A DNA stretch of 64,000 nucleotides from Bacteroidales bacterium (GCA_031553395.1 JAVBLR010000008.1:50486-114485), one strand, 5' to 3'. Counted from the first letter of the stretch, positions 1 through 13,761 are shown. Translations and numbers: made by a program. The notes: a model not told the origin generated them from the sequence alone.

Positions 1-2
1 AA

Positions 3-698
3 TCTATCGTAACAGCAGAAGCCAGCGAATTAATCGGAGATTACAACATTACGGATTTAGAAGGAAATCCAATTACCGAAGAAGATGCAACAGATTATTT
101 GATTGTATTGGACGGACAACACCGTGTAACAGCATTCTCTAAATTAAATGCAATCAGAAAATCGGAAAATCAATTATTGATACCGAATGTTCATATCAAA
201 ACAGGATTAAAAAATGTTCGTGAGTATTTGGCTGATATAAATATGATTGGACATAATTGGAGTACAGCGGATAAAATATGTGTATCTGCAATAGCATCGG
301 AAAATAAACTCTTGGATAAAATCAATGAATTGATAAAAGAGGGTTACAATGCAAGTACCGCAATTTTAATCTGCACAGGGAAGAAAGTAACGGCAAAACA
401 ACTGAAAACATTTATCACAACAGGAGATACAAGTTGTTTCCCTGATGAAGAAGAAGCACTGGAAAGAGCTGAAAAATTTCTGACAACTGCAATGTCTATT
501 CCTGATATGGTTGTTAAAATGTTAAGTAAAAGATACTTTATAAAAGGCTTTAACTCATTTGCCAAATCAAGAAATGATGAAGACGCATTTACAGCATTGG
601 CAAACTTAACCATAGACGATTTTAAAGAAACAAAAGAAGATGAAGATTTCATCGAAAAATTAAAATTGGCTTTGGAAGCAGCTTTGGAAGCAGCCTAA
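3..698 (+). CDS. ParB/Srx-fold (ParB N-terminal-domain-like) protein, 5' end outside window
   Basis: The reading frame is open from the window edge. 'LIVLDGQHRVTAF' matches the DGQHR/ParB-type motif. The C-terminus is helical and acidic. A hairpin terminator follows. Confidence 0.55.
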   Translation, partial: SIVTAEASELIGDYNITDLEGNPITEEDATDYLIVLDGQHRVTAFSKLNAIRKSENQLLIPNVHIKTGLKNVREYLADINMIGHNWSTADKICVSAIASENKLLDKINELIKEGYNASTAILICTGKKVTAKQLKTFITTGDTSCFPDEEEALERAEKFLTTAMSIPDMVVKMLSKRYFIKGFNSFAKSRNDEDAFTALANLTIDDFKETKEDEDFIEKLKLALEAALEAA

Positions 699-713
699 AC
701 AAATCTCAAAAAG

Positions 714-745
714 AACTATCCGCAAATAAAAGCGGATAGTTTCTT
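714..745 (+). terminator. Rho-independent-type hairpin after the ParB-like gene
   Basis: A perfect 10-bp stem, aactatccgc (714-723) / gcggatagtt (732-741), has an 8-nt loop and is followed by a T-rich tail. Confidence 0.6.
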
Positions 746-1129
746 ATCTAAAATTAAATTATTAGTCTAAAGTTCTTTGACTTACTATCCTATCAATATC
801 CGAAGAAAGACACGGGTGGCTTTATTTTCCCGAAAATAATTTTACCCCGATACTTGATTTGTATTAATTTATTGATTATCTTTGCATTACAAGTTAGGTA
901 AATAATATTTAATTCAAAATTGCATTTTATCTGACTTTCTTTTTTCGAGCAACATACCCGCTCAAAAAACAGCATCAAAAATAGATTTTTAGGCACTGCA
1001 TATTTGTTCAAGACAGGTTTATGTACAAAATCTGTCTTTTATTTGCTTTCTGCCTTCTTATTTTCCTATTTCTTAGATTACTTCAATACCAAAAGAGATT
1101 ACATATTATTTATATAACACAAATATGTA

Positions 1130-2980
1130 ATGCGAAAAATCAATTACAAAAAAGTCATTAAATTAAAAACAACAGACTACATTAACAAAGCCTTTAAAAT
1201 CTTACCTTCAAACGCATTTATTCATAAGGGACGTTGCGGAATTGGCGGAACAACCTTAGAACTCGAAACAAAACGTAATTCTATCATTGTTGCACCGACA
1301 ACAGGAATAATAGATGACAAATCATTTTCAACAGATGAATACGGTAATATTAAATATCCCGATTTATTTACTGTATATGGAAATATAAAACCAAAAGATA
1401 TTATACCTTATTTACAATCAGATAAAAAGGATAAAAAGATATTTGTTACACCCGATAGTTTATATAAAATTATAGAAGCAGCGAAAGAAGCAGGGCTTTT
1501 AGAAGAACTATATAATGACTACTTTCTATTGTATGATGAATCCCATTCAATTATAACCGAAGATTTTCGAGAGAAAATGATTGAAGCCTATAATCTACAA
1601 TTCGAATTCAAACAAAGGACGTTTATATCTGCAACACCTTATTATTTTTCAGACCCCCGTTTAAAAAATTTAGATTATTACAAGATAACATTTGATGAAC
1701 CATTAGGCAAAATCAATATTATTGATGCAAGAAGTGTAAAAGAGTGCTTAAATGCTTTTCTAACCGAAAAAGTTAAGGTCAAAGGAAATGTGCACATATT
1801 TTTCAATTCAGTAACGGAAATTGGAGAAGCGATTGAATATGCAGAATTACAGGATTGTAATATTTATGTTGCAGAAAAAGACGAAAACCTTGAAAAGTTA
1901 GGTAATGCAGCAAAATTCTATGTTAAACGTCCAATAACAGGGGAATATAAAAAGTTTAATTTCTATACAACCAAATACTTTGAAGGTTGGGACTTATTCG
2001 ATACAGATGCAACAATTATTTTAGTTACCGATGTATATAAACCACATACACAAGTCGGTATAACAAACAAAGGAGTACAGGCAATCGGCAGGTTAAGATT
2101 TATTCTTGGAAAACCTGAAACAAAACCTTTTGCAGTATACCACATAACAAATCACAGATACATGGAAAAATTTAAAACAATAGACGAATTTGAAAAGAAT
2201 TTCTACTTTGAAGCAACTTGGGAAGCCGAATCATTCAATCTATATATGGAGACATGCAAAGAATACGGTTTTGAACCTGATACCGAAAGAATAAAAAACG
2301 CAAAAAAATATACGGAATTTGACAGTGAAACAGGGTTAGTTAAGGTATGTTCCGCAAAAATCGACCAATTTATTAATAACTCGGCTTGCGATGAAGAATT
2401 CAATCATATTGATTACATAAAAAGAGCTTGGGAAGGCGCAGGGTTTGAAGCAGATATACATGTGTACAAGCAAACGGCTGAAAAAGACAGGCAGCGCAAA
2501 ACGACTAAATCAGTACAAGAAATATTATCGGACTTTGAAGCATTAGACCCTCAAAATGTATTTATTTTCCATACAGATGCAGATGCAGAAAAATTAAGCC
2601 AATTGAAAACAAGACACCCGCTTATTTATAAAGCATATAAGAATCTAACAAAAGAAGAAATAGAATCTACAAAATTTAATATTAAAGTTATTGAAAAACT
2701 TTTGATATTAAAGGAAAACAAGGATGCAGAAATAGCAGTAATGAAATTACTTCCGTTGTATTTTACTGTCGGAAGGAGATATACAAAGTCAGCTATTAAA
2801 AGCATGCTTCAAGATATTTACGACAAAACAGGGTTTAATAAAACAGCAACCGCAGAACAATTGCGTTCAATGGATTGGTACGAAACCAAGTCATGCAAAA
2901 TCAAAAATAATAACGAAGAATATGAAAACGGCTTTGAAATTCTGAGAATGAAATTCAAACTGAAAGTATCTGCAAAATAA
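1130..2980 (+). CDS. SF2 (DExH-type) helicase/ATPase family protein
   Basis: Helicase motifs appear in the expected order: I-like 'GRCGIGGTT', Ia 'IIVAPTTG', II 'LLYDESHS' (DExH) and III 'FISATP'. 616 aa. Confidence 0.6.
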   Translation: MRKINYKKVIKLKTTDYINKAFKILPSNAFIHKGRCGIGGTTLELETKRNSIIVAPTTGIIDDKSFSTDEYGNIKYPDLFTVYGNIKPKDIIPYLQSDKKDKKIFVTPDSLYKIIEAAKEAGLLEELYNDYFLLYDESHSIITEDFREKMIEAYNLQFEFKQRTFISATPYYFSDPRLKNLDYYKITFDEPLGKINIIDARSVKECLNAFLTEKVKVKGNVHIFFNSVTEIGEAIEYAELQDCNIYVAEKDENLEKLGNAAKFYVKRPITGEYKKFNFYTTKYFEGWDLFDTDATIILVTDVYKPHTQVGITNKGVQAIGRLRFILGKPETKPFAVYHITNHRYMEKFKTIDEFEKNFYFEATWEAESFNLYMETCKEYGFEPDTERIKNAKKYTEFDSETGLVKVCSAKIDQFINNSACDEEFNHIDYIKRAWEGAGFEADIHVYKQTAEKDRQRKTTKSVQEILSDFEALDPQNVFIFHTDADAEKLSQLKTRHPLIYKAYKNLTKEEIESTKFNIKVIEKLLILKENKDAEIAVMKLLPLYFTVGRRYTKSAIKSMLQDIYDKTGFNKTATAEQLRSMDWYETKSCKIKNNNEEYENGFEILRMKFKLKVSAK

Positions 2981-3004
2981 GTATTGAAAGAACTTGAAAA
3001 TACA

Positions 3005-3150
3005 GATTCTCAAAATTCTTAAAAAATTATGTTATTGCCCTTCTTAGGAAAATAGCCAATAAGAGAAAAAAATAAGAATTTAAATTTTTAGATTACAAGG
3101 TGTGATTATTTACAATAAAAGTCAATGGTTGAAAGATGACGATGGTTTTT
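3005..3150 (+). repeat. Copy 1 of a ~148-bp intergenic repeat (identical 44-bp head, diverged body, terminal hairpin plus T-run)
   Basis: The head 'gattctcaaaattcttaaaaaattatgttattgcccttcttagg' is identical to 6870-6913. The tail 'aaaagtcaatggttgaaagatgacgatggttttt' is homologous to the hairpins at 4026-4057 and 6982-7017. Confidence 0.8.
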
Positions 3151-3190
3151 GCAAAATACAAACTCACTTTAATTAACAACATGTCAAAAT

Positions 3191-3334
3191 ATGAAAAACT
3201 TTAACTTTACTAACAATGTAAAATTTACTTGTAATGACAAGAAAAAAGAAGCAGAAAGCAACAGATTATATAACAATTATAAGGAGCAAGATTATATACA
3301 TCAATTAATTAAATCTCAAATACTATGCCGCTGA
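3191..3334 (+). CDS. Possible 47-aa small ORF overlapping the start of the downstream radical SAM gene by 10 nt
   Basis: An ATG at 3191 opens MKNFNFTNNVKFTCNDKKKEAESNRLYNNYKEQDYIHQLIKSQILCR, with the stop at 3332-3334. There is no homology evidence, so this could be a chance ORF in AT-rich DNA. Confidence 0.2.
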   Translation: MKNFNFTNNVKFTCNDKKKEAESNRLYNNYKEQDYIHQLIKSQILCR

Positions 3335-4023
3335 ATTTACCAGACGGAAATATGTACAAATTTATAACTCATACATGGAATCCAGTAAAAGGAAAATGTG
3401 AACATAAATGCCCTTATTGCTATATGTGCAAAGAAGGAAGACAAATACAAACCCCAATCAGATTAGATACAACAGAATTTAGAACAGATTTAAAAACAAA
3501 TAAATTCATATTTGTTGGAAGCGGAACAGATTTATTCGCTGATAATATACCTAGAGAATGGATATTGAGGACATTAGATTATTGTTATTCTTTTAATAAT
3601 GGTCTTTTTGATTATTCAAATAATTACCTGTTTCAATCAAAGAATCCAAAGAGAATGATTGAATTTCTTGAACATCCTATATTTAATGAATCAGTTGCAT
3701 GTACAACAATTGAAACAAACAGGTTTTACCCTGAATATATGGGGAATGCTCCGAATGTTAAAGAAAGAGCCTTAGCAATGCAAGAAATATCATCACGAGG
3801 AATTAAAACTTATGTTACCATAGAACCAATTATGAATTTTGATTTGGAAGAAATGATTGAATTGATAAGGATGTGCAATCCGATTCAGGTAAACATTGGT
3901 GCAAATACCAATCATGGAATTAATTTACCTGAGCCTTCAACTGACAAGATTCTGATTTTGATTGATGAACTTTCAAAGTTTACGGAAGTTGAAAAGAAAA
4001 GTAATTTATATAGATTACTGTAA
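3325..4023 (+). CDS. Radical SAM-type protein, DUF5131 / phage Gp37-Gp68-like
   Basis: The N-terminal 'THTWNPVKGKCEHKCPYCY' gives a CxxxCxxC cluster motif directly after a 'TWNP..G.C' signature typical of the Gp37/Gp68 family. 'FVGSGTDLFADNIP' resembles that family's second block. Confidence 0.55.
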   Translation: MPLNLPDGNMYKFITHTWNPVKGKCEHKCPYCYMCKEGRQIQTPIRLDTTEFRTDLKTNKFIFVGSGTDLFADNIPREWILRTLDYCYSFNNGLFDYSNNYLFQSKNPKRMIEFLEHPIFNESVACTTIETNRFYPEYMGNAPNVKERALAMQEISSRGIKTYVTIEPIMNFDLEEMIELIRMCNPIQVNIGANTNHGINLPEPSTDKILILIDELSKFTEVEKKSNLYRLL

Positions 4024-4025
4024 GC

Positions 4026-4057
4026 AAAAGCCGTTGGTTGAAATGCCAACGGTTTTT
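4026..4057. terminator. Bidirectional hairpin terminator between the convergent radical SAM genes
   Basis: The sequence aaaag-ccgttgg-ttgaaatg-ccaacgg-ttttt has an A-tract and a T-tract flanking a 7-bp stem. It is related in sequence to the hairpins ending both 148-bp repeats. Confidence 0.65.
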
Positions 4058-4189
4058 GTTATTTAAAGATGTACTTAGAAGTCTAATTTTCAGATTATGT
4101 ACCATTCTGGTATTCGGACTGTAACGAGACTTCTAAATTACACCTCTTTATCACATAACTGATGCCAGATTATTTGTAAGCTTGTATGA

Positions 4190-5155
4190 TTAACAGCTTT
4201 CATAATATGTTATAGGAAAGGAAGGAAACATAAAATCAATCATATCAGTCATTGGTTGATTCAAATCTGTTTCACCTAATGGAATTTGTTTATATAAATC
4301 TCTTCTTAATAAACATGGTTTTAATACCCCCCTTGCATCTACTCTTAAAACAAAAACCCCCTCTCCACACTCAACTTTTAATTGACAATCTTGACACATT
4401 TTTGTTTGTAATTTAGGATAACTAGAACTTTTTATTCTCCATAATTTATTATTTTTACTTTTATATTCTTTCATAATGCAACCAGTGCTATCTTGTACTG
4501 TTTTGTCAAAAACAGCATATTTACTGAAAATCTTTTCAACATTATTAGAATCTATATAACCTATTTTTTTATTATTTGACCATTGGGTTTCCATTAAATC
4601 ACAAATTAACAAGTCTGTTTTCCAATTATAGACATAATCTATCAATTCTTCTAAACAAGCTTCATTTTTCTTTGTTAAAGTATGATTAATTGTTATATTG
4701 CTTCCAATAGTAACACATTCTTTAATATTCTTTTGAAGAATATCAAAATCAAAATTTTCCCCTAGAAGATTCTTTCCTAAAGTATTATTAGTTGCATGAA
4801 CACTTAATTTTATTTGTTGTATTTTATCTAGTTTATTAAATATCTTATCTAATTCTAATCCATTTGTACAAATCGCTAATTTGCGATTAGGATTATATGC
4901 AATATCTATCAAATCAGATATATTTGAATGTAAAATAGGTTCTCCTCCAGTTAAATTTATTTCTCTAATATTCAGTTTATTTGCCTCAAATATAAGTCGA
5001 GAAAAGAAATCAATTGGGATTTGAATATTTTGCCAATGATCTAAAATACCTTCTCTATGACAAAATAGACAAGTAAGTTGACATCTGTTTGTTACTGAAA
5101 TTCGGAGTCTTCCTTTATAATAATTAAATGCATCTATTCCAGAAAGTTGTTTCAT
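4190..5155 (-). CDS. MoaA-like radical SAM enzyme with C-terminal auxiliary Cys cluster
   Basis: 'LRISVTNRCQLTCLFCHREG' is very close to the MoaA 'LRISVTDRCNxRCxYC' motif. 'NLTGGEPILH' is a SAM-binding GGE block. The C-terminal 'CQDCQLKVEC...LRVDARGVLKPCLL' resembles the MoaA second-cluster and 'RLTADGKL..CL' region. Confidence 0.7.
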   Translation of the reverse strand: MKQLSGIDAFNYYKGRLRISVTNRCQLTCLFCHREGILDHWQNIQIPIDFFSRLIFEANKLNIREINLTGGEPILHSNISDLIDIAYNPNRKLAICTNGLELDKIFNKLDKIQQIKLSVHATNNTLGKNLLGENFDFDILQKNIKECVTIGSNITINHTLTKKNEACLEELIDYVYNWKTDLLICDLMETQWSNNKKIGYIDSNNVEKIFSKYAVFDKTVQDSTGCIMKEYKSKNNKLWRIKSSSYPKLQTKMCQDCQLKVECGEGVFVLRVDARGVLKPCLLRRDLYKQIPLGETDLNQPMTDMIDFMFPSFPITYYESC

Positions 5156-5194
5156 AACATAAATTTATTTAGTTATTTTTCGGTGTATTAGCTC

Positions 5195-6016
5195 TTATTG
5201 TTTTCGTATCTTTTTTCCCTTTTTAAAATAATCTCCTAAAGTTTCAAAAGGTTCTGTTATTGGTTGATTAAATTTACTCCAAAACACATCGCTTTTTAAA
5301 TCAGGTTCTTGTAATAATGGAATGTCTCTAAATTCAGTATTTTCAATCATGATTATATGAAAAAAATTATATTTCATAGATATTGTATAATTAGAAAAAG
5401 GCAATGAACAACTCAAAGATACCTTTAAACCATCTTCCATTGGATCAAAATCTTTTGGATCACAACTTAATATATCTGTTTCTCCAATTTTTAAATTTAA
5501 AACAGAGTTTTTTAGATAAGGAAGATAAGTATTTCTAGTATTTCTATGCCTACGATAATACTTTTCTACTGTCAAAAAATGTAGGTTTTCTAAATGGGAT
5601 TTAGTTGTATTTACAAGCATTACACAAAATTGATTTTCTTCTGTTAAATAGAATGCATATGGGGAAAAAACAATTGTTTGCTTACTAGGGAACAAAAACT
5701 TCATTGTTAGAAAACTAACATATATTCCCCATAAAATGACATTTAAAATGGATTGAATATATATGATAATAAATGTAATGCCATTATAGTTGTCATAATT
5801 TAAACTAAAGAATTGAATTGAAAAACTAAATTTTAAACATTCTATATAATTATCATATACAGAAAGTAAATAATAAAATGTTGAAAAAAATACATTTTGG
5901 AAAAGTAAAAAACATAATGCTACACAGAAAAATGTAGGAATTGTTGTTTTTGAAATAAGTATATTAATTTTATTAGAATAGCCTTTCATAATCTTATATT
6001 GCAATTTTTTTTCCAA
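5195..6016 (-). CDS. Kir/KirBac-like channel-fold membrane protein with a non-canonical pore loop
   Basis: Two hydrophobic helices flank a pore-helix-like segment, 'CLKFSFSIQFFSLNYDNYNG', where Kir channels have F.FS.ET..TIGYG. After TM2, 'KFLFPSKQTIVFSPYAFYLTEENQFCVMLVN' parallels the Kir 'K...P..RA..I.FS..AVI...DG...L.FRV.N' entry into the cytoplasmic beta-rich domain. The call is by eye only. Confidence 0.45.
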   Translation of the reverse strand: MEKKLQYKIMKGYSNKINILISKTTIPTFFCVALCFLLFQNVFFSTFYYLLSVYDNYIECLKFSFSIQFFSLNYDNYNGITFIIIYIQSILNVILWGIYVSFLTMKFLFPSKQTIVFSPYAFYLTEENQFCVMLVNTTKSHLENLHFLTVEKYYRRHRNTRNTYLPYLKNSVLNLKIGETDILSCDPKDFDPMEDGLKVSLSCSLPFSNYTISMKYNFFHIIMIENTEFRDIPLLQEPDLKSDVFWSKFNQPITEPFETLGDYFKKGKKIRKQ

Positions 6017-6650
6017 GAATTAAACGCTCTGCAGCAATAAACACTTTTAAATAATAGTCATCATATCTTTTGATAAACATATCTTTATCTATTTCAAACA
6101 AATGCTGTTCTAACATATTTCCATTATAAGAAAATCCTGTACAGTATATTTTTTCTTTTTTATCACAAAACAAATTAAATCCATCTTCAATAGGTATTTC
6201 TATGATAGCATCGGATTCCTTAAAATCAATTTTAAAATCAGTTAATTTATATTGACCTAAAACAAAAAAAACGTCTGCAAATATCCTGCTTAAAAAAATA
6301 TCTTTTTGAAATAAGTCTATTCTTCTTCCTCCAAAAAACAATTGTTCTTTCGTAATTATAACTCCTAACTCCTCCTTTACTTCTTTCAACGCAGTATCTA
6401 TAGTATTCATACCATATTTAACATGTCCTGAAGCGCTCACATCAAATAATCCTGAAGCAATATTTTTTGTTATGCTTCTTTTTTGAAAAATAACACTTTT
6501 ATTCGTTGCATTTATCAGCCAACATTGACTACAAAAATGCCAAAGCCCTTGAAGATTTGCGACAGATCTTTCTGCAAACCCAATTTCTTCAAGCATGTCA
6601 TTGTATATAGAAACTATTTCATTTCCATGTTCGACTAAATTTGTCTTCAT
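5994..6650 (-). CDS. Nudix-fold hydrolase family protein (IDI/YfcD-like variant)
   Basis: The Nudix box is 'GHVKYGMNTIDTALKEVKEELGV' (G-x5-M-x7-KEVxEELGV). The first Glu is replaced by Met and the Arg by Lys. The 3' end overlaps the downstream gene by 23 nt. Confidence 0.65.
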   Translation of the reverse strand: MKTNLVEHGNEIVSIYNDMLEEIGFAERSVANLQGLWHFCSQCWLINATNKSVIFQKRSITKNIASGLFDVSASGHVKYGMNTIDTALKEVKEELGVIITKEQLFFGGRRIDLFQKDIFLSRIFADVFFVLGQYKLTDFKIDFKESDAIIEIPIEDGFNLFCDKKEKIYCTGFSYNGNMLEQHLFEIDKDMFIKRYDDYYLKVFIAAERLILGKKIAI

Positions 6651-6869
6651 AAATACATTATTACATTATATTGAACATATATTTTACATACTCCCTCATA
6701 ACTACTAAATAGGCAAAACCTTTTTATATATTTATTAAAAATTCAAATTAATAAAAAAACAATAAGATATTATGATTTAATATAAATAACCTAAATTTAT
6801 TCAATTATTTTAAATGTATATTTTGTATTGTGATTTCAAGATAAAAATACCTAGGACTAGAATAAAGTC

Positions 6870-7017
6870 GATTCTCAAAATTCTTAAAAAATTATGTTAT
6901 TGCCCTTCTTAGGGAAATATCAAATAGTGGAAAAAAATAAGAAGTCAAGTTTCTCGATTACAGAGTGTGTTTGCTCCCAATAAAAGCCGTTGGTTGAAAG
7001 TGCTGCCGACGGCTTTT
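6870..7017 (+). repeat. Copy 2 of the ~148-bp intergenic repeat, ending in a hairpin terminator (6982-7017)
   Basis: The first 44 nt are identical to 3005-3048 and the remainder is about 70% similar by eye. The terminal 'aaaagccgttggttgaaagtgctgccgacggctttt' hairpin lies 10 nt from the cyclase stop codon. Confidence 0.8.
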
Positions 7018-7027
7018 ATATATAAAA

Positions 7028-8104
7028 TCAATTTTTTGGAGAATTATCTTCCACCCATTGAGGCCTTTCAACAGAATATGAACTCTTATGTAATTCTATT
7101 TTATAAGCTAAAGCAGTTCCTTCATTTTTTATGATAACCTCTGTTTCAATTATTTTGGCATAGTTTTCACAAACTTTTAATAGTTCTTCTTTAGCAGGTT
7201 GATTTAATAAAGTATCTCCAGCTTTTGCACTAGACATTCGACATGCATACACAACAGGTATACCGACAACGGTTAATTCGTTTCTATTATTTACTAATGT
7301 AACTGTTCCATAGTCAATACCTATACCTAATCCTATATCTTTGATAAATACGTTGAAGCATTCTCTAGAACTTCTATAATGTTCATCAAAAACTTTATGA
7401 CATTCTTCTGCGGTTTTTAAAGCACGAACCATTGCAGATTCTCCACTATAAAATTTTGGGAAAAAAGCTAAAACTCCATCGCCTGTAAATTTATCAAATA
7501 CACCATAATTAAATATAATTTTATTTGATAATTTTTGGCTTAAATCTGTAATAAACTTAGAGAATAATTCAGGCTGTCTTGCTTTGAGCATAAGCTCTGT
7601 TGAACGCCTAATATCAATGGACATTACAACTGCGTCACAACTTTTCCCATTCTCAAAAGACTCTCTAAAAGTATCATCACTCAATAACTTCTGCCTTGCT
7701 TCTTCACATATTCTAGGTAATATATGATTTATTTTTTCTTTAGATTGAAGTTCTTTCTGTAATTCTGCTAATTCTGTTATCTTTTCATTTTTATCGGAAG
7801 TGGCTTCCTTGAGTTCTTTAAGAGTTTGATGATATTTACTTCTTAGATTTGTTATTTCCTGTTCTAAAACTAATTGCCTATCAAAGTTGGATTCTTTTAG
7901 TTCTATAATATTAAAATCATTCGGATTTGAAGAACCTAAAACTATATTGCCCTGCGGCTGATTTAAAGGGTCATACATGTCTATATTGTAATCTGGAGGA
8001 AATGCTGCATCTCGGATAATATCATTATAAGTTAAATGAGTGTAATTATTAGGTAACATAAATATCTCACCTTCGGTTTTCGAATCTTTTTTTCCTTTAG
8101 CCAT
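7028..8104 (-). CDS. Class III nucleotidyl cyclase (CHD) with N-terminal region and coiled coil
   Basis: The cyclase homology domain blocks are 'AVVMSIDIRRSTELM' (metal Asp block), 'KFTGDGVLAFF' and 'IGLGIGIDYGTVTL...TVVGIPVYACRMSS'. A coiled coil 'LEQEITNLRSKYHQTLKELKE...LQKELQSKEK' precedes the domain. Confidence 0.75.
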   Translation of the reverse strand: MAKGKKDSKTEGEIFMLPNNYTHLTYNDIIRDAAFPPDYNIDMYDPLNQPQGNIVLGSSNPNDFNIIELKESNFDRQLVLEQEITNLRSKYHQTLKELKEATSDKNEKITELAELQKELQSKEKINHILPRICEEARQKLLSDDTFRESFENGKSCDAVVMSIDIRRSTELMLKARQPELFSKFITDLSQKLSNKIIFNYGVFDKFTGDGVLAFFPKFYSGESAMVRALKTAEECHKVFDEHYRSSRECFNVFIKDIGLGIGIDYGTVTLVNNRNELTVVGIPVVYACRMSSAKAGDTLLNQPAKEELLKVCENYAKIIETEVIIKNEGTALAYKIELHKSSYSVERPQWVEDNSPKN

Positions 8105-8156
8105 AAAATTAATTATTTATTTGTTTTTTCAACCTATTAAAAACCGTTGCAATATA

Positions 8157-8164
8157 CAAAAATA
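8157..8164 (-). promoter_or_regulatory. Bacteroidota -7 box (TAttTTTG on minus strand) upstream of the cyclase gene
   Basis: The plus strand reads 'caaaaata', the reverse complement of TAnnTTTG, 53 nt upstream of the ATG at 8104. No clear -33 TTTG was seen. Confidence 0.35.
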
Positions 8165-8632
8165 AACGATATTATATAAATTTCACATAATAATATTTTA
8201 CCTCTTCATTTAAAAATGAAATGCGAATTTTAGTTTTTCTTTTAAAACTAATTTAAAATTGCTTTTAATAGAAACATACAGACAAAACACCCCCTATCCT
8301 CCCAAAATACCCCCTCCACCCATCTATTATCTATTATATAAATAAAGACTGTAAGAGATGGTACAGTACCCATATATCCCCCTTATATATCGAAAGTATA
8401 AAACAAAAGTTTATGTAAACTTTGGTACAGAATAAAGCAGTCGAGCGATTAATAAAACCCAAACCCAAGAAATAACTGAAATAATTTGTTTGCCGAATAG
8501 ATTCTGCCATTTTACCGAGTTCAGAATTAACAAACGGAAAATCTAAATAAATAAAAGAAATAACCTTATTATATAACCCGAAAATATAGCTGTTCCATGT
8601 GAACGGCTTTTTTCATTTAATGCAACATTATT

Positions 8633-9085
8633 ATGGAAAACATGTATCAAATAAACGAAGTAAAACTAAGCTACAAGCTAAAGCAAAGACCTTCCGAATG
8701 TCCAAAGATACAGGATAGTAAAACAACGTATGATTTATTGTTAAAGTGCTATGATACCGATACTATCGAATTAAGGGAAAGTTGTAAAGTACTGCTAATA
8801 AATAGGTCTAACAGCGTTTTAGGTGTTTTGAGCGCAAGTGAAGGCGGATTAACGGGAACAATAGTCGATATTAAACTAATCCTGCAATCTGCAATATTGA
8901 CTAACGCAAGTGGAGTTATCATTTCGCATAATCATCCAAGCGGAAATTTAACTACAAGTTCGCAAGATGACTTTATAACACGTCAATTAAAGAAAGCCTG
9001 TGATATAATGGATATTCAATTCTTAGACCATATAATTGTAACATCGGAAGGGTATTATAGTTATGCCGATGAAGGGAGATTATAA
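8633..9085 (+). CDS. radC: RadC-like JAB/MPN domain protein
   Basis: 'VIISHNHPSGNLTTSSQD' is the JAMM HxHPSG motif, and 'DHIIV' lies near the C-terminus. The size (150 aa) is typical of mobile-element RadC. Confidence 0.85.
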   Translation: MENMYQINEVKLSYKLKQRPSECPKIQDSKTTYDLLLKCYDTDTIELRESCKVLLINRSNSVLGVLSASEGGLTGTIVDIKLILQSAILTNASGVIISHNHPSGNLTTSSQDDFITRQLKKACDIMDIQFLDHIIVTSEGYYSYADEGRL

Positions 9086-9092
9086 AATACAT

Positions 9093-9118
9093 TTGCTTTA
9101 GAAAGTTCGCCAAATTTT
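9093..9118 (+). repeat. Site A: 26-bp repeat 'ttgctttagaaagttcgccaaatttt'
   Basis: This is a perfect direct repeat of 10057-10082. It lies 140 bp upstream of the recombinase ATG. Confidence 0.85.
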
Positions 9119-9258
9119 TTAATCTAAACAATGGGAAAACGATTAATGCCTGTACTTATCCAAGTGCGGACATTGTCGTTTTTTTAATCATTTGAAAGTG
9201 GCGTTTTAATGACGTTCGTTATTGTTCTGCTACTATTCTTTTATATAAATAAAGAGTT

Positions 9259-9936
9259 ATGAAATACGTAATATATTACAGGGTTTCAACAAAGAAACAA
9301 GCAAATAGCGGTTTGGGATTAGAAGCACAAAAAACGATAGTAGAGAATTATTTAAAAGGTAGTTCCATTGTCATTGCTGAATTTACCGAAGTTGAAACGG
9401 GAAAGAGTTCAAACCGTCCGCAATTGAATAATGCTTTGGCTTGTTGCAAAGAAAACAATGCTATTTTAATAGTAGCCAAATTAGACAGGCTTGCAAGGAA
9501 TCTACATTTTGTTACTTCATTACAGGCTGCAAACATTGATTTTATTTGTTGTGATATGCCAACTGCAACCCGTTTGACTATTCATATCATTGCAGCAATA
9601 GCAGAAAATGAAGCACAATTGATAAGTCAACGAACAAAACAGGCATTAGCAGAAAAGAAGAAACAGGGTATTAAATTAGGTAATCCACAAAACAACGGAT
9701 TAACGAAAGAGAATATCCTGAAAGGATGTAGCATAAGGAAAGAAAATGCTTTTTCAAACGAACAAAACAAGAAAGCGGGAACACTTGTAACCATGATGCG
9801 AAAAGGCGGTTCAAAATGGAGTGAAATAGTTCTGCAATTAAATCAAAACGGATTTAAGACAAGACGAAATTGCAATTTTGACATTACAGTTGTAAAGCGT
9901 TTATATGCACGTTATAACTTAGTATTAAATACTTAA
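9259..9936 (+). CDS. Small serine recombinase (resolvase/invertase family)
   Basis: 'YYRVSTKKQ...GLGLEAQ' is the catalytic-Ser N-terminal domain. 'VAKLDRLARN' and 'ENEAQLISQRTKQAL' are also present. A C-terminal helix-turn-helix-like tail follows. Confidence 0.85.
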   Translation: MKYVIYYRVSTKKQANSGLGLEAQKTIVENYLKGSSIVIAEFTEVETGKSSNRPQLNNALACCKENNAILIVAKLDRLARNLHFVTSLQAANIDFICCDMPTATRLTIHIIAAIAENEAQLISQRTKQALAEKKKQGIKLGNPQNNGLTKENILKGCSIRKENAFSNEQNKKAGTLVTMMRKGGSKWSEIVLQLNQNGFKTRRNCNFDITVVKRLYARYNLVLNT

Positions 9937-9949
9937 TGACTGAAAAGTG

Positions 9950-9979
9950 TTTGTTGGTTTAATGATTTTTGTATATTTG
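9950..9979 (+). promoter_or_regulatory. Bacteroidota-type promoter (-33 TTTG / -7 TATATTTG) reading toward the LRR operon
   Basis: TTTG lies at 9950-9953 and TAtaTTTG at 9972-9979, giving an 18-nt spacer. A stable hairpin (ttccgaa...ttcaa-agcg-ttgaa...ttcggaa, 9986-10017) starts at the predicted 5' end of the transcript. Confidence 0.5.
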
Positions 9980-10056
9980 CATCAATTCCGAAACGTTCAA
10001 AGCGTTGAAGTTCGGAAGGACATAATTAAGATAACGTAAGCGTTTAAGATATTACC

Positions 10057-10082
10057 TTGCTTTAGAAAGTTCGCCAAATTTT
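10057..10082 (+). repeat. Site B: second perfect copy of the 26-bp repeat
   Basis: Site B is identical to 9093-9118 and lies 120 bp downstream of the recombinase stop. A long imperfect palindrome (about 10090-10193) follows it. Confidence 0.85.
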
Positions 10083-10200
10083 CTCAAATTACGGAACAAG
10101 TGTAATAGACAACAAGAACGCTCACGTTTTTATTTGTATGTAACTATGTTATGTATAATAAAGGCGTGGGAGACTGTTGTTTATTTGTTCCGTTAGGTGT

Positions 10201-10221
10201 TTGGCGATACCTCTAAAGCAA
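10201..10221 (-). repeat. Site C: inverted imperfect copy of the 26-bp repeat core
   Basis: 'ttggcgatacctctaaagcaa' compared with the reverse complement 'ttggcgaactttctaaagcaa' gives 17/21 identical. All four mismatches cluster at the centre. Confidence 0.65.
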
Positions 10222-10310
10222 ATAAGACATTGACAGTGCTCTCACGCTTCTTTTATTTAATAACATTGCCTTTTTGGAGAGTGTAAAGGCAAATTAATAC
10301 AAATAAGATT

Positions 10311-10586
10311 ATGAATAAACAAAAAAATTACTCTGTTTTGACTGAGGAAGAATTTGCTAAAAAAGGTACTCAGCAAAATGCTACTTTAGTACAAGTATCA
10401 TTCCCAAATCAAGAATTCAATCCGATTTATTTAGATGTTTCTATATTGTATGAAAATAAAAGCATTGAAGAACGATTAGAAAAAGATGATAACTCTATTA
10501 CAATGTATATAAAGGAACTTGGATATTCATTTGATAATCTTTTAATTAGTTGGTTTATTCCTAAACATGTACAAAATGAAAACTAA
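10311..10586 (+). CDS. Hypothetical small protein (91 aa)
   Basis: This is an ORF only. It overlaps the start of the LRR gene by 20 nt, which suggests co-transcription. No motif was recognised. Confidence 0.35.
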   Translation: MNKQKNYSVLTEEEFAKKGTQQNATLVQVSFPNQEFNPIYLDVSILYENKSIEERLEKDDNSITMYIKELGYSFDNLLISWFIPKHVQNEN

Positions 10587-12471
10587 AACTACATTCAAAT
10601 CAATATTGATAATAATCTGTTTATTATTACAATTCAATTTAAAAGCGGCGGATTCTTCAGTTGTATTAAGTAATGTTAAGGCCGGTACATTAAGTTCTTT
10701 ATTAGGTAATAAAGCATATGGAACTACTGATTTAACTATTGCAGGAGAATTAAATGGAGCAGATATTAAAACTATTCGAGGAATGGCAAATCTAACAGTC
10801 CTTGATATTACAAATGCAAGAATAGTAAAAGGGGGAGGATTCTATTTACAAATGTACGAGGCTGGGAGTTATTTTACATATTACACTGATTATGACAAAT
10901 TACCTCATTATATGTTTTATAATTTGCAAAAATTAACAACAGTTAATCTACCAAATAGTATATATTCATTAGGAGAAAATGCCTTTTATGGGTGTACAAA
11001 TCTTACAACTGTTATAATACCGGATAATGTAATATATTTGGGGGATAATACTTTTAAAAATTGTAAAAAAATAATAAATATTGTGATTCCTAATAACATA
11101 ACATCAATTGGGTCAAGCGTTTTCTGGGGTTGCACAAGCCTAATAAATATTGAAATACCAAATAATGTAACTTTTATTGGACAATTCGCTTTTTATGAAT
11201 GTACAGGTTTAACAAATGTTACAATACCAAATAGTGTAACGTCGATTGGGAGCTCTGCTTTTTATGAATGTACAGGTTTAACTAATATTATTATTCCTAA
11301 TGGTGTTACCACAATTGGAGATGGTGCTTTTAGTCGATGTACAGGTCTAACAAATATTACAATACCAAATAGTGTAACGTCGATTGGGGTTTCTGCTTTT
11401 CGTGGTTGTTCAGAAATAAAAAGTTTTAAAGTAATGGAACAAAATTCAGCATACTCTACGATTGATGGAGTATTATTTGATAAAGAAAATACGACTTTAA
11501 TTGCATATCCTAATGCAAAAGGAAGTTCTTACACTATACCAAATAGTGTAACGTCGATTGAGAGCTCTGCTTTTTATGGTTGCACAGGTTTAACTAATAT
11601 TGTAATACCGAATAGTGTAACTTCGATTGGAATTTCTGCTTTTTATGAATGTACAGGTTTAACTAATATTGTCATACCTAATAGTGTAAAGAAAATTGAT
11701 TGGTCTACTTTTTATGAATGCACAGGTTTAACAAATGTTACAATCGGTAATAGTGTTACTTCGATTGGATATGAGGCTTTCCGTGGTTGCACAGGTCTAA
11801 TAAATATTATTATTCCTAATGGTGTTACCACAATTGGAGATGGTGCTTTTAGTCGATGTACAGGTCTAACAAATATTACAATCGGTAATAGTGTTACTTC
11901 GATTGGAGTTTTTGCTTTTTATGGTTGCACAGGTTTAACTAATATTGTAATACCGAATAGTGTTACTAAAATATATAAGGATGCATTCTCAATTTGTACA
12001 GGATTAACAAGCATTACTATTCCAAATAGTGTAACCAGTATTGAAAATGCTTTTACTAATTGTTCTGAACTAAAAGAAATATATAGTAAGAAATCTACTC
12101 CTCCAGCTATTAATACTAATTGTTTTTATGATGTTTTAAGAATATGCAAATTGTATATTCCAAAAGGCTCTTATAGTGCATATAGAGCAGCGCAAGGATG
12201 GAATTATTTTGTAAATATTATTGAAGAAGATGCAAATACAATTAACACTATCTATAACAACAACCTTAATTATCAAATTAATAATGGAGATTTACACATT
12301 CAAGATTTAGAATATGGCGCTTTTGTTCAATTATTTGATATTAATGGAAAAATAATAACCGAAGTCAATACAACTTCAAATAATGAACAAATCAAATTAC
12401 CACAAAGGGGTATTTATATAATCAAAGTACATTTTAATAATCAATTATTTACTCAAAAGGTTGTTTGGTAA
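10567..12471 (+). CDS. BspA-type leucine-rich-repeat surface protein with T9SS C-terminal sorting domain
   Basis: A signal peptide is followed by about 17 tandem 23-aa units of the form 'IPNSVTSIGxxAFxxCTGLTNIx'. The C-terminal ~80 aa beta-rich tail ('RGIYIIKVHFNNQLFTQKVVW') is typical of Por/T9SS CTDs. Confidence 0.8.
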   Translation: MYKMKTKTTFKSILIIICLLLQFNLKAADSSVVLSNVKAGTLSSLLGNKAYGTTDLTIAGELNGADIKTIRGMANLTVLDITNARIVKGGGFYLQMYEAGSYFTYYTDYDKLPHYMFYNLQKLTTVNLPNSIYSLGENAFYGCTNLTTVIIPDNVIYLGDNTFKNCKKIINIVIPNNITSIGSSVFWGCTSLINIEIPNNVTFIGQFAFYECTGLTNVTIPNSVTSIGSSAFYECTGLTNIIIPNGVTTIGDGAFSRCTGLTNITIPNSVTSIGVSAFRGCSEIKSFKVMEQNSAYSTIDGVLFDKENTTLIAYPNAKGSSYTIPNSVTSIESSAFYGCTGLTNIVIPNSVTSIGISAFYECTGLTNIVIPNSVKKIDWSTFYECTGLTNVTIGNSVTSIGYEAFRGCTGLINIIIPNGVTTIGDGAFSRCTGLTNITIGNSVTSIGVFAFYGCTGLTNIVIPNSVTKIYKDAFSICTGLTSITIPNSVTSIENAFTNCSELKEIYSKKSTPPAINTNCFYDVLRICKLYIPKGSYSAYRAAQGWNYFVNIIEEDANTINTIYNNNLNYQINNGDLHIQDLEYGAFVQLFDINGKIITEVNTTSNNEQIKLPQRGIYIIKVHFNNQLFTQKVVW

Positions 12472-12516
12472 TGTGAGCACATAATAATATAGTAAGTCAA
12501 ATTAAAAAACAAATGA

Positions 12517-13278
12517 ATGAAAACAAACAGATTAATTTCGGCTATGATTTTAGCCACAATATTTTTGAGTTTTACAGCTTGCAGTAATGACGATGATTCC
12601 ATAAATGGCGGAAACGGACAAAGTGGCAAGCGAGTTGCAAAAATTGTAAATGAATACGATGATTTTATTCGCACCGAAATATTTTCATACTCAAATGGTA
12701 AATTGTCTCACTATACAGCCAAATATGACAATAAAACAGGATATGAAAACAATCAAACAATTACTTATTCAGGTAATACAGTTGTTTTAAAAGGGTTGTT
12801 TGATGGAAGCGATTGTGTACAAACATATACTTTGAATAACAGCGGTTTGGCTACTTCCTGCAAGATTGTAAATAAAAATAGTGGCAGTGAGAAAGATTAC
12901 ATATTCCAATATTCAGATGGTTATTTGATAGGCATGTCGTTTGCTTATTCGAGTAAAGATTACAATTCGTCAGAAATATACATCTTTAATTATTCAAATG
13001 GAAATATGACGAAGCTAACTCATAAAGACAACTACGAAACCCGAACCTATTCTTTCACATATTACAATGATTTGAATAAAGGAAATATAATGAACGAATT
13101 TATGTCGGATGATTTGTTTGCTCATAGGGCAGCATTTTACGCTGGTATTTTGGGAAAAGCAACAAAAAATCTACCTAAGTCAAATGGACAATATGATGTT
13201 GTTTATTATTTGGATAATGACGGATATGTAAAGACTGCTACAGATGTAGAGTATAAATATACATATACGTATGAATAA
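12517..13278 (+). CDS. Lipoprotein with repeated Y-x-Y-S/N-x-G beta-hairpin motifs
   Basis: The lipobox is 'LSFTACSND'. Repeats include 'FSYSNGKLSHY', 'YTLNNSGLATS', 'FQYSDGYLIGM', 'FNYSNGNMTKL' and 'YYLDNDGYVKT'. Confidence 0.6.
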   Translation: MKTNRLISAMILATIFLSFTACSNDDDSINGGNGQSGKRVAKIVNEYDDFIRTEIFSYSNGKLSHYTAKYDNKTGYENNQTITYSGNTVVLKGLFDGSDCVQTYTLNNSGLATSCKIVNKNSGSEKDYIFQYSDGYLIGMSFAYSSKDYNSSEIYIFNYSNGNMTKLTHKDNYETRTYSFTYYNDLNKGNIMNEFMSDDLFAHRAAFYAGILGKATKNLPKSNGQYDVVYYLDNDGYVKTATDVEYKYTYTYE

Positions 13279-13301
13279 GAAATATCTATGTTAAGATTAT
13301 G

Positions 13302-13332
13302 ACGGCAAGTGTGAGAATCATTTGCCGTTTTT
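13302..13332 (+). terminator. Rho-independent-type terminator
   Basis: The stem acggcaa (13302-13308) / ttgccgt (13322-13328) is followed by tttt. Confidence 0.6.
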
Positions 13333-13462
13333 GAATAAAATAGAGTTAAGTAAATTTTTCATTAATTATCTTGGAAAACTATTGTCAGTTAAACCGTGAG
13401 TTAAACCAGTAAAAACTTGAACATATTTTCAAGCAAAAACAAACAACAAGGTAATTGCATAA

Positions 13463-13578
13463 GCCGCTATAGCTCAGTGGTAAGCCTTGGAAGACGAGGC
13501 TCCGCCGAGTCTTTTAAGGCCGAAGGGAGCAACGCATTCGTAACGCGTAGGTCACGAGTTCGAGTCTCGTTAGTGGCT
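13463..13578 (+). tRNA. tRNA-Thr (anticodon CGU) interrupted by a 44-nt insertion between D-loop A21 and D-stem G22
   Basis: The tRNA parts are acceptor gccgcta/tagtggc, D-stem gctc...gagc, D-loop agtggta, anticodon arm acgca-ttCGTaa-cgcgt and T-arm acgag-ttcgagt-ctcgt. Removing 13483-13526 yields a canonical 72-nt cloverleaf. No CCA is encoded. Confidence 0.7.
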
Positions 13579-13584
13579 CTTGAG

Positions 13585-13625
13585 AATAAAGCAGTTACAT
13601 AAATGTGACTGCTTTATTATTTTTG
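13585..13625 (+). terminator. Rho-independent terminator after the tRNA
   Basis: The stem aataaagcagt (13585-13595) / actgctttatt (13608-13618) is followed by a T-run. Confidence 0.7.
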
Positions 13626-13721
13626 GAGGAAAAGGGAGATTTAGGTGGTTTTATGCAAGTTGTGTCACAAATGTGTCAACCATGAACGCAAATAAATTAA
13701 GTACATGATATAAAAATTACC

Positions 13722-13729
13722 TACATTTG
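13722..13729 (+). promoter_or_regulatory. -7 box TAcaTTTG upstream of the PhnB-like gene
   Basis: The sequence is an exact TAnnTTTG match, 33 nt upstream of the ATG at 13762. Confidence 0.4.
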
Positions 13730-13761
13730 CACCTAATGTCAAACATGTAAAACAACCAATT

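Follow-up and report, generated by a model that had tools for sequence, protein, structure and literature searches.

Our analysis of a 64,000-nucleotide stretch of DNA (hereafter the window) indicates that a tRNA-Thr(CGU) gene split by a small hairpin is, on balance, probably the recombinase-distal junction of a genomic island that integrates into tRNA-Thr(CGU), that is, either an attR or the attP-like joint of two tandem elements. The split gene stands in an island context between element-type flanks, it has a conserved second example in a termite gut metagenome, and its fold is conserved between the two. An intact tRNA-Thr(CGU) probably lies at the other end of the island, ~16 kb upstream and outside the window. 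If the att reading is right, what looks like a bacterial mini-intron is ordinary island biology, and the genome most likely retains a normal tRNA-Thr(CGU).

A perfect tRNA-Thr(CGU) cloverleaf is encoded at window positions 13463-13578 on the plus strand, interrupted after A21 by 44 nt (13483-13526). Its parts are as follows.

13463..13482, plus strand: 5' part of tRNA-Thr(CGU), nt 1-21 (acceptor 5' strand, U8 A9, D-stem 5' strand, D loop); in-silico splicing gives a tRNA, and the pairs to the 3' part are all kept.
13483..13526, plus strand: 44-nt insert, recognised by its fold and by the homologous 42-nt insert in contig L141.
13527..13578, plus strand: 3' part of tRNA-Thr(CGU), nt 22-73 (D-stem 3' strand, anticodon arm, variable loop, T arm, acceptor 3' strand, discriminator U), recognised from sequence and in-silico splicing.

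The layout of the gene is GCCGCTA-TA-GCTC-AGTGGTA-[44 nt]-GAGC-A-ACGCA-TTCGTAA-CGCGT-AGGTC-ACGAG-TTCGAGT-CTCGT-TAGTGGC-T, in which the acceptor stem is GCCGCTA/TAGTGGC with a G4.U69 pair, the D arm has the stem GCTC/GAGC and the loop AGTGGTA, the anticodon loop is TTCGTAA and the T arm is ACGAG-TTCGAGT-CTCGT; the discriminator base is U, and CCA is not encoded. Tertiary and conserved nucleotides (U8, A14, G18, G19, A21 and the T loop) are kept, all ThrRS identity positions are present (G1-C72, C2-G71, G35, U36), and the fold of the full 116 nt retains the acceptor and D stems around the insert. An earlier reading made from the sequence alone (the sequence-only reading) had described this intact cloverleaf, its position and the 44 nt that separate A21 from the D-stem strand GAGC, and all of this was confirmed from the sequence and by in-silico splicing. 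The split copy, with its interrupted D loop, has lost neither stem pairing nor any conserved tertiary nucleotide and so does not pass as a pseudogene.

Standard annotation tools miss this gene. ARAGORN called zero tRNAs across the 64-kb window, staying silent on the locus, and removal of 13483-13526 in silico restored a clean 73-nt tRNA-Thr(cgt). At its gathering score Rfam gave no match in the window, the split tRNA included, and its tRNA model reached just 24.7 bits on the locus, in a spurious register. Because standard tRNA finders are silent at such a locus, an annotation could list tRNA-Thr(CGU) as missing. An assembly or chimera artefact, which might be suspected given the MAG origin of the window and the fact that one assembler's contigs break inside the tRNA, has next to no chance of being the explanation: two assemblers agree at the window locus and two at L141, and a homologous insert occurs in an unrelated sample (L141). 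The Logan contig L061 (SRR23967709), made by a different assembler, equals window 11934-13556 at 100% and reproduces the whole insert exactly, which disposes of the artefact that the sequence-only reading had asked about.

The DNA around the split gene carries the marks of mobile elements, and the features on which the following paragraphs draw are these.

1..13278, no strand: right-hand part of a low-GC genomic island (island A), from Pfam matches and ORF GC.
13303..13333, plus strand: hairpin with a T-run that follows the lipoprotein gene and marks where the flank shared with L141 ends on the left, from the sequence, which aligns with ACGGTAAG..CTTGCCGTTTT of L141.
13387..13407, plus strand: doublet of direct repeats (AGTTAAACC-gtg-AGTTAAACC), which may be an arm-type site for the recombinase or a regulatory site, from its recurrence in L141 and L195.
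13527..13615, plus strand: candidate 89-nt direct repeat or att identity block, which starts at tRNA nt 22, takes in the rest of the tRNA and covers a further 37 nt of element terminator, from Logan contig ends.
13585..13618, plus strand: intrinsic terminator AATAAAGCAGTTAC..GTGACTGCTTTATT, a conserved left-end module of the element family, from a terminator scan and homology.
13638..13708, plus strand: GATTTAGGTGGTTTTA, a degenerate repeat pair GTTGTGTCACAAATGTGTCAACC and a 9-codon ORF, with the module order found in L195 and L104.

The GC content of ORFs is 29.9% to the left of the tRNA versus 37.2% to the right. Pfam assigns to the cargo of island A a helicase-like protein, two radical-SAM proteins, a NUDIX protein, RadC, a serine resolvase, a BspA-LRR/T9SS protein and a lipoprotein, whereas the genes to the right of the tRNA are core-like (VOC, MscS, pstSCAB); the inserted segment thus differs from the flanking core in both composition and gene content, as expected of an island. 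The earlier remark that the gene lies at the border of an accessory region was well founded, with a GC jump at the tRNA, accessory genes on its left and core genes on its right. Relatives of the VOC gene at 63-71% identity occur in other contexts, and in those the tRNA is absent.

A recombinase also stands where a tRNA-targeting island should have one. The Logan contig L194, which reaches 1997 nt to the left of the window, starts within the gene of a tyrosine recombinase (PF00589), of which it encodes the last 118 aa; the gene is on the same strand as the tRNA, ~15.4 kb upstream of it, and ends ~2 kb to the left of the window start, so that a PF00589 domain marks one end of the island. Recombinase domains are found 3' of an intact tRNA-Thr(CGU) in six further loci, which makes tRNA-Thr(CGU) a habitual target. 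At 176 aa, the recombinase ORFs of the element family are short; they comprise the catalytic domain alone and lack the box-I arginine, and the island may be a decayed and immobile relic. Short tyrosine-recombinase ORFs (~176-184 aa) directly after tRNA genes, as in L195 10001-10531 and L194 1-357, have >1100 homologues, which lie mostly at contig ends and seem to break metagenome assemblies.

The cargo of the island deserves a brief description of its own. Window 1130-8104, at 24-33% GC, encodes a helicase-like protein, a DUF5131/radical-SAM protein, a second radical-SAM protein, a NUDIX protein and several proteins without a family, and this cluster is possibly a defence or nucleotide-modification module. 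A RadC-like JAB protein sits beside a small serine resolvase at 8633-9936, inside the island, and Rfam found no radC motif in the window. The product of window 10567-12471 is a leucine-rich-repeat protein of the BspA type that has a T9SS sorting domain at its C-terminus, and there the heptamer TTAAACC, on the minus strand and spaced by multiples of 69 nt, marks the 23-residue repeat units. The T9SS sorting domain places the organism in Bacteroidota. We rejected the idea that the tRNA came with the island to serve the island's ACG codons, since ACG makes up 8% of Thr codons in the island versus 12.7% in the core.

The flanks of the split gene are shared with related elements. In ~1.4 Mb of fetched DNA the doublet occurs only in the window, in the L141 cassette (TGTAAACC x2), just upstream of the recombinase gene of L195, and in one chance match; window 13387-13416 matches the doublet region of L195 at 27 of 30 positions. 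The L195 recombinase is 87% identical to that of L194 and lies directly after an intact tRNA-Phe, the order being tRNA-Phe, terminator AGCAGTTAC..GTAGCTGCTTTTTT, GATTGGTTTTAGGGG, doublet AGTTAAACC-gag-AGTTAAACC and the recombinase ATG. On the other side of the split gene, the window terminator is homologous to the sequence directly 3' of intact tRNA-Thr(CGU) (L104, L080, L147) and of tRNA-Phe (L195), and together with the GATT..GGTTTTA motif it aligns with L104, L080 and L147 at scores of 50, 41 and 33 (background 16-19). L195, L104 and the 3' side of the window have a common module order, namely terminator, GATT..GGTTTTA, repeat doublet and recombinase start, and 13638-13708 is a probable remnant of a decayed second element (B) whose left end is reduced to ~130 nt, the similarity at the ORF start being weak. 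The terminator that the sequence-only reading had assigned to the gene itself is real (terminator scan, 13585-13618), but since it recurs after other intact tRNAs it is the conserved left end of the element family. The 5' flank of the split gene is, on sequence grounds, likewise element DNA. The hairpin at 13303-13333 was not flagged by the terminator scan, its loop being too long.

The ends of the Logan contigs bear on how far the repeat extends. Logan contigs are built with k = 31, every 31-mer is distinct, and contigs of <150 bp are unreported (PMC12424806). At the split gene the left contig stops at 13556 (= 13526 + 30) and the right contig begins at 13586, ends which, at this k, point indirectly to an unreported 89-nt node with two predecessors and two successors. 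It is implied that 13527-13615 occurs twice in the sample, the copies diverging exactly at the boundary between the insert and exon 2, with the second copy outside the window. We infer that this 89-nt block, 52 nt of tRNA and 37 nt beyond it, is the att repeat, which the sequence-only reading had missed. A duplicated node fits the direct repeat of a tRNA-integrated island together with a crossover in the anticodon or T stem-loop, which are an established class of crossover sites for tRNA-targeting integrases.

These observations lead us to propose the following arrangement. The element would carry, beside its arm-type doublet, a complete look-alike of its target tRNA, split after nt 21 by a 42-44-nt hairpin, and would recombine with the chromosomal tRNA inside the uninterrupted 3' block (nt 22-76, comprising the anticodon and T stem-loops). 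The host would thereby keep an intact tRNA-Thr(CGU) at the recombinase end, with GCTCAGTGGTA running uninterrupted into GAGCAACGC, while the far end, seen in the window, would keep the 5' part and hairpin of the element fused to the repeated 3' block. The predicted order is intact tRNA-Thr(CGU), terminator (CTTGAGAATAAAGCAGTTAC...), doublet, recombinase, cargo, doublet, exon 1, hairpin and the repeat 13527-13615, to the right of which would come the second-element remnant (13616-13708) and then core genes. L141, taken as an attR, would read element flank, exon 1, hairpin, 3' block and then unrelated host DNA; a crossover placed in exon 1 was discarded, as it does not fit L141. In the related elements of L195, L104, L080 and L147, this terminator and these repeats do come after an intact tRNA. 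Because the host would keep an intact tRNA at the recombinase end, the split copy would be redundant, dispensable for ACG reading, and need not be spliced.

At the tRNA-gene att sites of integrase islands, prophages and ICEs, the intact tRNA is found at the int end and a 3' fragment of the tRNA forms the direct repeat at the far end. The window locus resembles such sites in its recombinase at one end, the composition jump at the tRNA, the terminator supplied by the element, the probable tandem remnant and a candidate repeat block that would extend from upstream of the anticodon stem past the 3' end, and tRNA-Thr(CGU) is targeted elsewhere as well. It departs from them in that the far end normally consists of a 3' fragment only, whereas the element in the window adds a matching 5' part that a hairpin separates from the candidate repeat. 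We found no description in the literature of a far-end junction that has the appearance of a whole interrupted gene.

The second member of the family came from a metagenome scan with the 27-mer that starts at tRNA nt 22, which returned at least 120 loci. These first 27 nt of the 3' part are identical in at least 119 uninterrupted Bacteroidota-type tRNA-Thr(CGU) genes, and among the matches listed 119 of 120 are uninterrupted and one, L141, is interrupted. L141 is a contig from a metagenome of the P4 gut compartment of the termite Embiratermes neotenicus, and its sequence was reproduced by an independent re-assembly of that sample. Its insert is 42 nt long, lies at the identical position and is 64% identical to that of the window; an A leads into a 12-bp stem, which is capped by a GC clamp and GCA loop with GA on either side, and CGAAGA forms the tail. 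The 175-nt upstream flanks of the two genes give a local alignment score of 46, compared with 19.4 +/- 2.8 for shuffles (maximum 36 in 2000) and <=28 for the upstream regions of 112 uninterrupted tRNA-Thr loci, and because the 5' flanks are homologous, the insert was not acquired twice in situ: the two genes belong to one cassette. Exon 1 differs between them by 2 substitutions (20 sites) and 1 indel in 21 nt and is thus much closer than the 5' flank (~60% identical) or the insert. The suggestion of a recently inactivated pseudogene at the accessory border therefore survives as regards the location, which is the probable junction of an island, but not as regards the history, since the interruption is old and conserved, as attested by the 64%-identical L141 insert, the homologous 5' flank and compensatory changes.

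The exons of L141 are 100% identical to uninterrupted genes in the same (L147) and in related termite metagenomes (L080, L098, L150), and those uninterrupted genes lie in another context, 5-6 nt after a conserved 139-aa gene. This arrangement, with the tRNA-Thr(CGU) 5-6 nt past the stop codon of the 139-aa gene (family unknown) and a radical-SAM gene in front of it, recurs in termite-gut Bacteroidota (L080, L098, L100, L104, L147, L150) and implies co-transcription with the tRNA. In L141 itself, a triad of Ser/Thr kinase, VWA and PP2C phosphatase genes (1696-4596) adjoins the interrupted tRNA. Relatives of the TPR gene beside it (73-82% identity) have no tRNA at that place and so reveal no empty site, which counts against the att reading.

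A selfish palindromic mini-element of the MITE or REP kind, which would have struck a tRNA gene and left a plain pseudogene, could also produce a hairpin-shaped insert; the insert is missing from 119 of 120 tRNA-Thr(CGU) genes with the same anticodon arm, among the matches listed, and the interrupted copy is probably redundant. We nevertheless consider this origin very improbable. MITEs and REPs are recognised by many dispersed copies and by a target-site duplication or a conserved flanking tetranucleotide, and here the insert has a single copy in the 64-kb window, a covariance model (R1, D arm plus insert) run over the ~1.4 Mb of fetched loci found the two cassettes and no further copy, an exact search with the 24-mer of the insert core had no match in JGI metagenomes and IMG/VR, and the sequence contains no target-site duplication. 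Moreover, the shared 5' flank makes the two inserts one cassette and not two hits, and exon 1, with its 2 substitutions in 20 sites next to a flank that is only ~60% identical, keeps the cloverleaf intact. BLAST of the locus against phages and plasmids gave only matches to the tRNA's 3' half.

The insert in the window begins with an A. Its 12-bp stem, which includes 2 G.U pairs, leads to a tandem G.A/A.G and then to a GGC/GCC clamp closed by a UCC triloop, and a 6-nt tail, CGAAGG, stays unpaired. The helix comprises ~17 stacked pairs, and the fold has -23.1 kcal/mol (z = -3.9), a stability reached by 0 of 200 shuffles. That the insert can fold on itself had been noticed before, and this is correct; the internal loop described at the same time is in fact closed by the two G.U pairs, which yields a continuous 12-bp stem. 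Both members have a stem of exactly 12 bp that starts with a G-C pair; a single nucleotide precedes it on the 5' side, and the tail on the 3' side is conserved. The two insert stems have nine differences, every one a transition, which amount to 3 compensatory and 3 wobble changes with 0 broken pairs. Across the whole alignment 33 of 33 pairs form in both rows, with double-sided changes in 5 of them (3 in the insert stem, 7-66 in the acceptor, 51-63 in the T stem), and RNAalifold returns the same structure unaided. The probability that all 12 stem pairs survive is 1.2e-4 under random substitutions and 0.04 under a transitions-only null, in a test with n = 2 sequences, so that the support for structural conservation of the hairpin is modest.

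This brings us to the question of whether the hairpin acts in DNA or in RNA. In the first case the palindrome and the 5' segment of the tRNA would be part of the attP architecture, either as a site for the recombinase or an accessory factor or as a cruciform that bends the P arm, and would never be a functional RNA. The hairpin has the arm-type doublet on one side and the crossover block on the other and is ~20-80 bp away from the anticodon loop, which agrees with this, given that in lambda-type attP accessory sites sit between the arm-type sites and the crossover. A conserved Bacteroidetes -33/-7 promoter was sought upstream of both cassettes and none was found, symmetric changes in half-sites would look 'compensatory' as well, and the significance of the covariation is only ~0.04 under the transitions-only null. 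Several features argue the other way, and we regard a purely DNA-level role as rather unlikely. All 5 non-Watson-Crick pairs of the hairpins are G.T (G.U) on the sense strand and none is A.C, and the antisense hairpins are much weaker (-16.8 and -6.6 kcal/mol versus -23.1 for the window and -18.2 for L141 on the sense strand), a bias that favours folding as a single strand, probably RNA. The conserved tandem GA/GA is a direct and not an inverted repeat, and as such meaningless in duplex DNA. Finally, exon 1 is perfectly complementary to the 3' part, including the double change at 7-66, and a duplex site needs no such complementarity; strand-specific G.T pairs, non-palindromic GA/GA and complementary acceptor and D stems are all left unexplained by a site in duplex DNA. 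A serine resolvase site or an invertible segment was rejected as the nature of the palindrome, its spacer being palindromic and its mismatches strand-specific.

If the hairpin acts in RNA, it might be removed. Host RNases would then process the transcript of a true intervening sequence, and the exons would either be ligated (e.g. by RtcB) or stay unligated, as after excision of rRNA intervening sequences by RNase III, to give a working and possibly two-piece tRNA-Thr(CGU). The exons are exactly those of a canonical tRNA, D loop included, and the insert evolves fast yet keeps its helix. Twelve base pairs also matches the acceptor/T minihelix, whose length RNase P and RNase Z measure, and a stem of this size that begins with G-C, follows a single 5' nucleotide and has a conserved tail hints, by way of speculation, at recognition by one of these enzymes. 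We still find such an intron improbable. A bulge-helix-bulge, which consists of two 3-nt bulges that carry the splice sites and a 4-bp helix between them, cannot be drawn at the insert, in either single-sequence or alignment folds, since both junctions fall in the internal loop of 8 x 6 nt that separates the insert stem from the D stem. Rfam gave no group I, group II or ribozyme family at E <= 10 within 13300-13750, and hammerhead, pistol, twister, other ribozymes and the YrlA Y-RNA have no credible score at the locus, in line with the earlier observation that a hammerhead-like core is lacking. No bacterial pathway for protein-dependent tRNA splicing is known to us, nothing requires the removal because an intact copy is very probably present as well, and a full-text search of the literature found no report of such an element. 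The novel small intron entertained by the sequence-only reading is thus unsupported: there is no bulge-helix-bulge and no ribozyme or group I/II signal, and an uninterrupted copy is very probably present.

Comparison with known interrupted RNAs leads in the same direction. With the intervening sequences of bacterial 23S and 16S rRNA the insert shares its hairpin form, its place in a loop of a conserved RNA, its sporadic occurrence, and a sequence that drifts while the helix is kept; it differs in that the host molecule is a tRNA, in its conserved tandem G.A and single-stranded tail, and in that the copy is probably redundant and borne by an element. Like the non-canonical introns of archaeal and eukaryotic tRNAs it is short and interrupts an otherwise perfect tRNA away from the anticodon, but the bulge-helix-bulge of those introns is missing and the host belongs to Bacteroidota; to our knowledge the tRNA-splicing endonuclease is absent from bacteria. 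Of the introns described in bacterial tRNAs, those of group I lie in anticodon loops, and one case in a D loop belongs to group II (PMC13011429). They too interrupt a bacterial tRNA gene and hide it from ARAGORN (PMC13011429), but at 44 nt the window insert is far too small for either group and has no catalytic core and no Rfam match. A review of non-canonical tRNAs describes no D-loop hairpin insert (PMC7609411), and our full-text search returned nothing that resembles a hairpin-split tRNA element.

We therefore keep to the junction of a tRNA-targeting island as the explanation of the locus, and turn to what the hairpin and exon 1 may do within it. We do not think that the hairpin is a double-stranded recombinase site or a removable intron; most likely it would be a structure of the sense single strand, in a putative transcript whose trimming by RNase P and RNase Z would leave a five-armed, tRNA-shaped RNA. 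The tRNA-derived regulatory RNA that the sequence-only reading had offered as an alternative is a possibility. Exon 1 and the hairpin are unlikely to be relics, because exon 1 is far better conserved than the flank and is complementary to the 3' block, although gene conversion across the palindromic loop could have kept exon 1 host-like and so mimicked selection on an RNA. It is possible, and we put it forward tentatively, that a family of Bacteroidota elements encodes in its attachment region a transcribed tRNA-Thr(CGU) with a structured 42-44-nt module at the junction of D loop and D stem (12-bp helix, tandem G.A, clamp, tail CGAAGR), which would either be kept as the fifth arm of an RNA that serves the element or be removed by host RNases. 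If this is true, bacterial tRNAs would have in this module their first small intervening element outside groups I and II, one invisible to ARAGORN and Rfam; an expressed RNA would represent a new class of tRNA-derived RNAs on mobile elements, and a function at the DNA level a new piece of attP architecture. What is odd and calls for explanation is the retention, beside the crossover block of two diverged elements, of a 5' tRNA segment that folds perfectly and of a hairpin with sense-strand-specific pairing.

Two further sets of loci came up in the searches. In Photorhabdus luminescens (L027 3998-5119), matches to the tRNA D arm recur in tandem every 113-177 nt and probably represent an array of tRNA genes. 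A pattern scan of GTDB (GCTCAGTGGTA N25-55 GAGC...) returned 59 loci with 0 D-loop inserts, and since the pattern needs AGTGGTA and is blind to genes of the L141 type (AGTCGGTA), this absence is weak evidence. The 59 loci were rejected as D-loop inserts, because in each of them a full tRNA comes after the 5' fragment of a truncated one; most are from Patescibacteria. In these ~59 species genomes, mostly Patescibacteria/CPR MAGs (L002-L060; e.g. L013 6308-6400, L021 3983-4076, L044 2658-2761), the truncated fragment ends in the D or anticodon loop and is followed by a recurrent CCTGCCCGCC-like motif, with the complete tRNA 10-30 nt after that motif.
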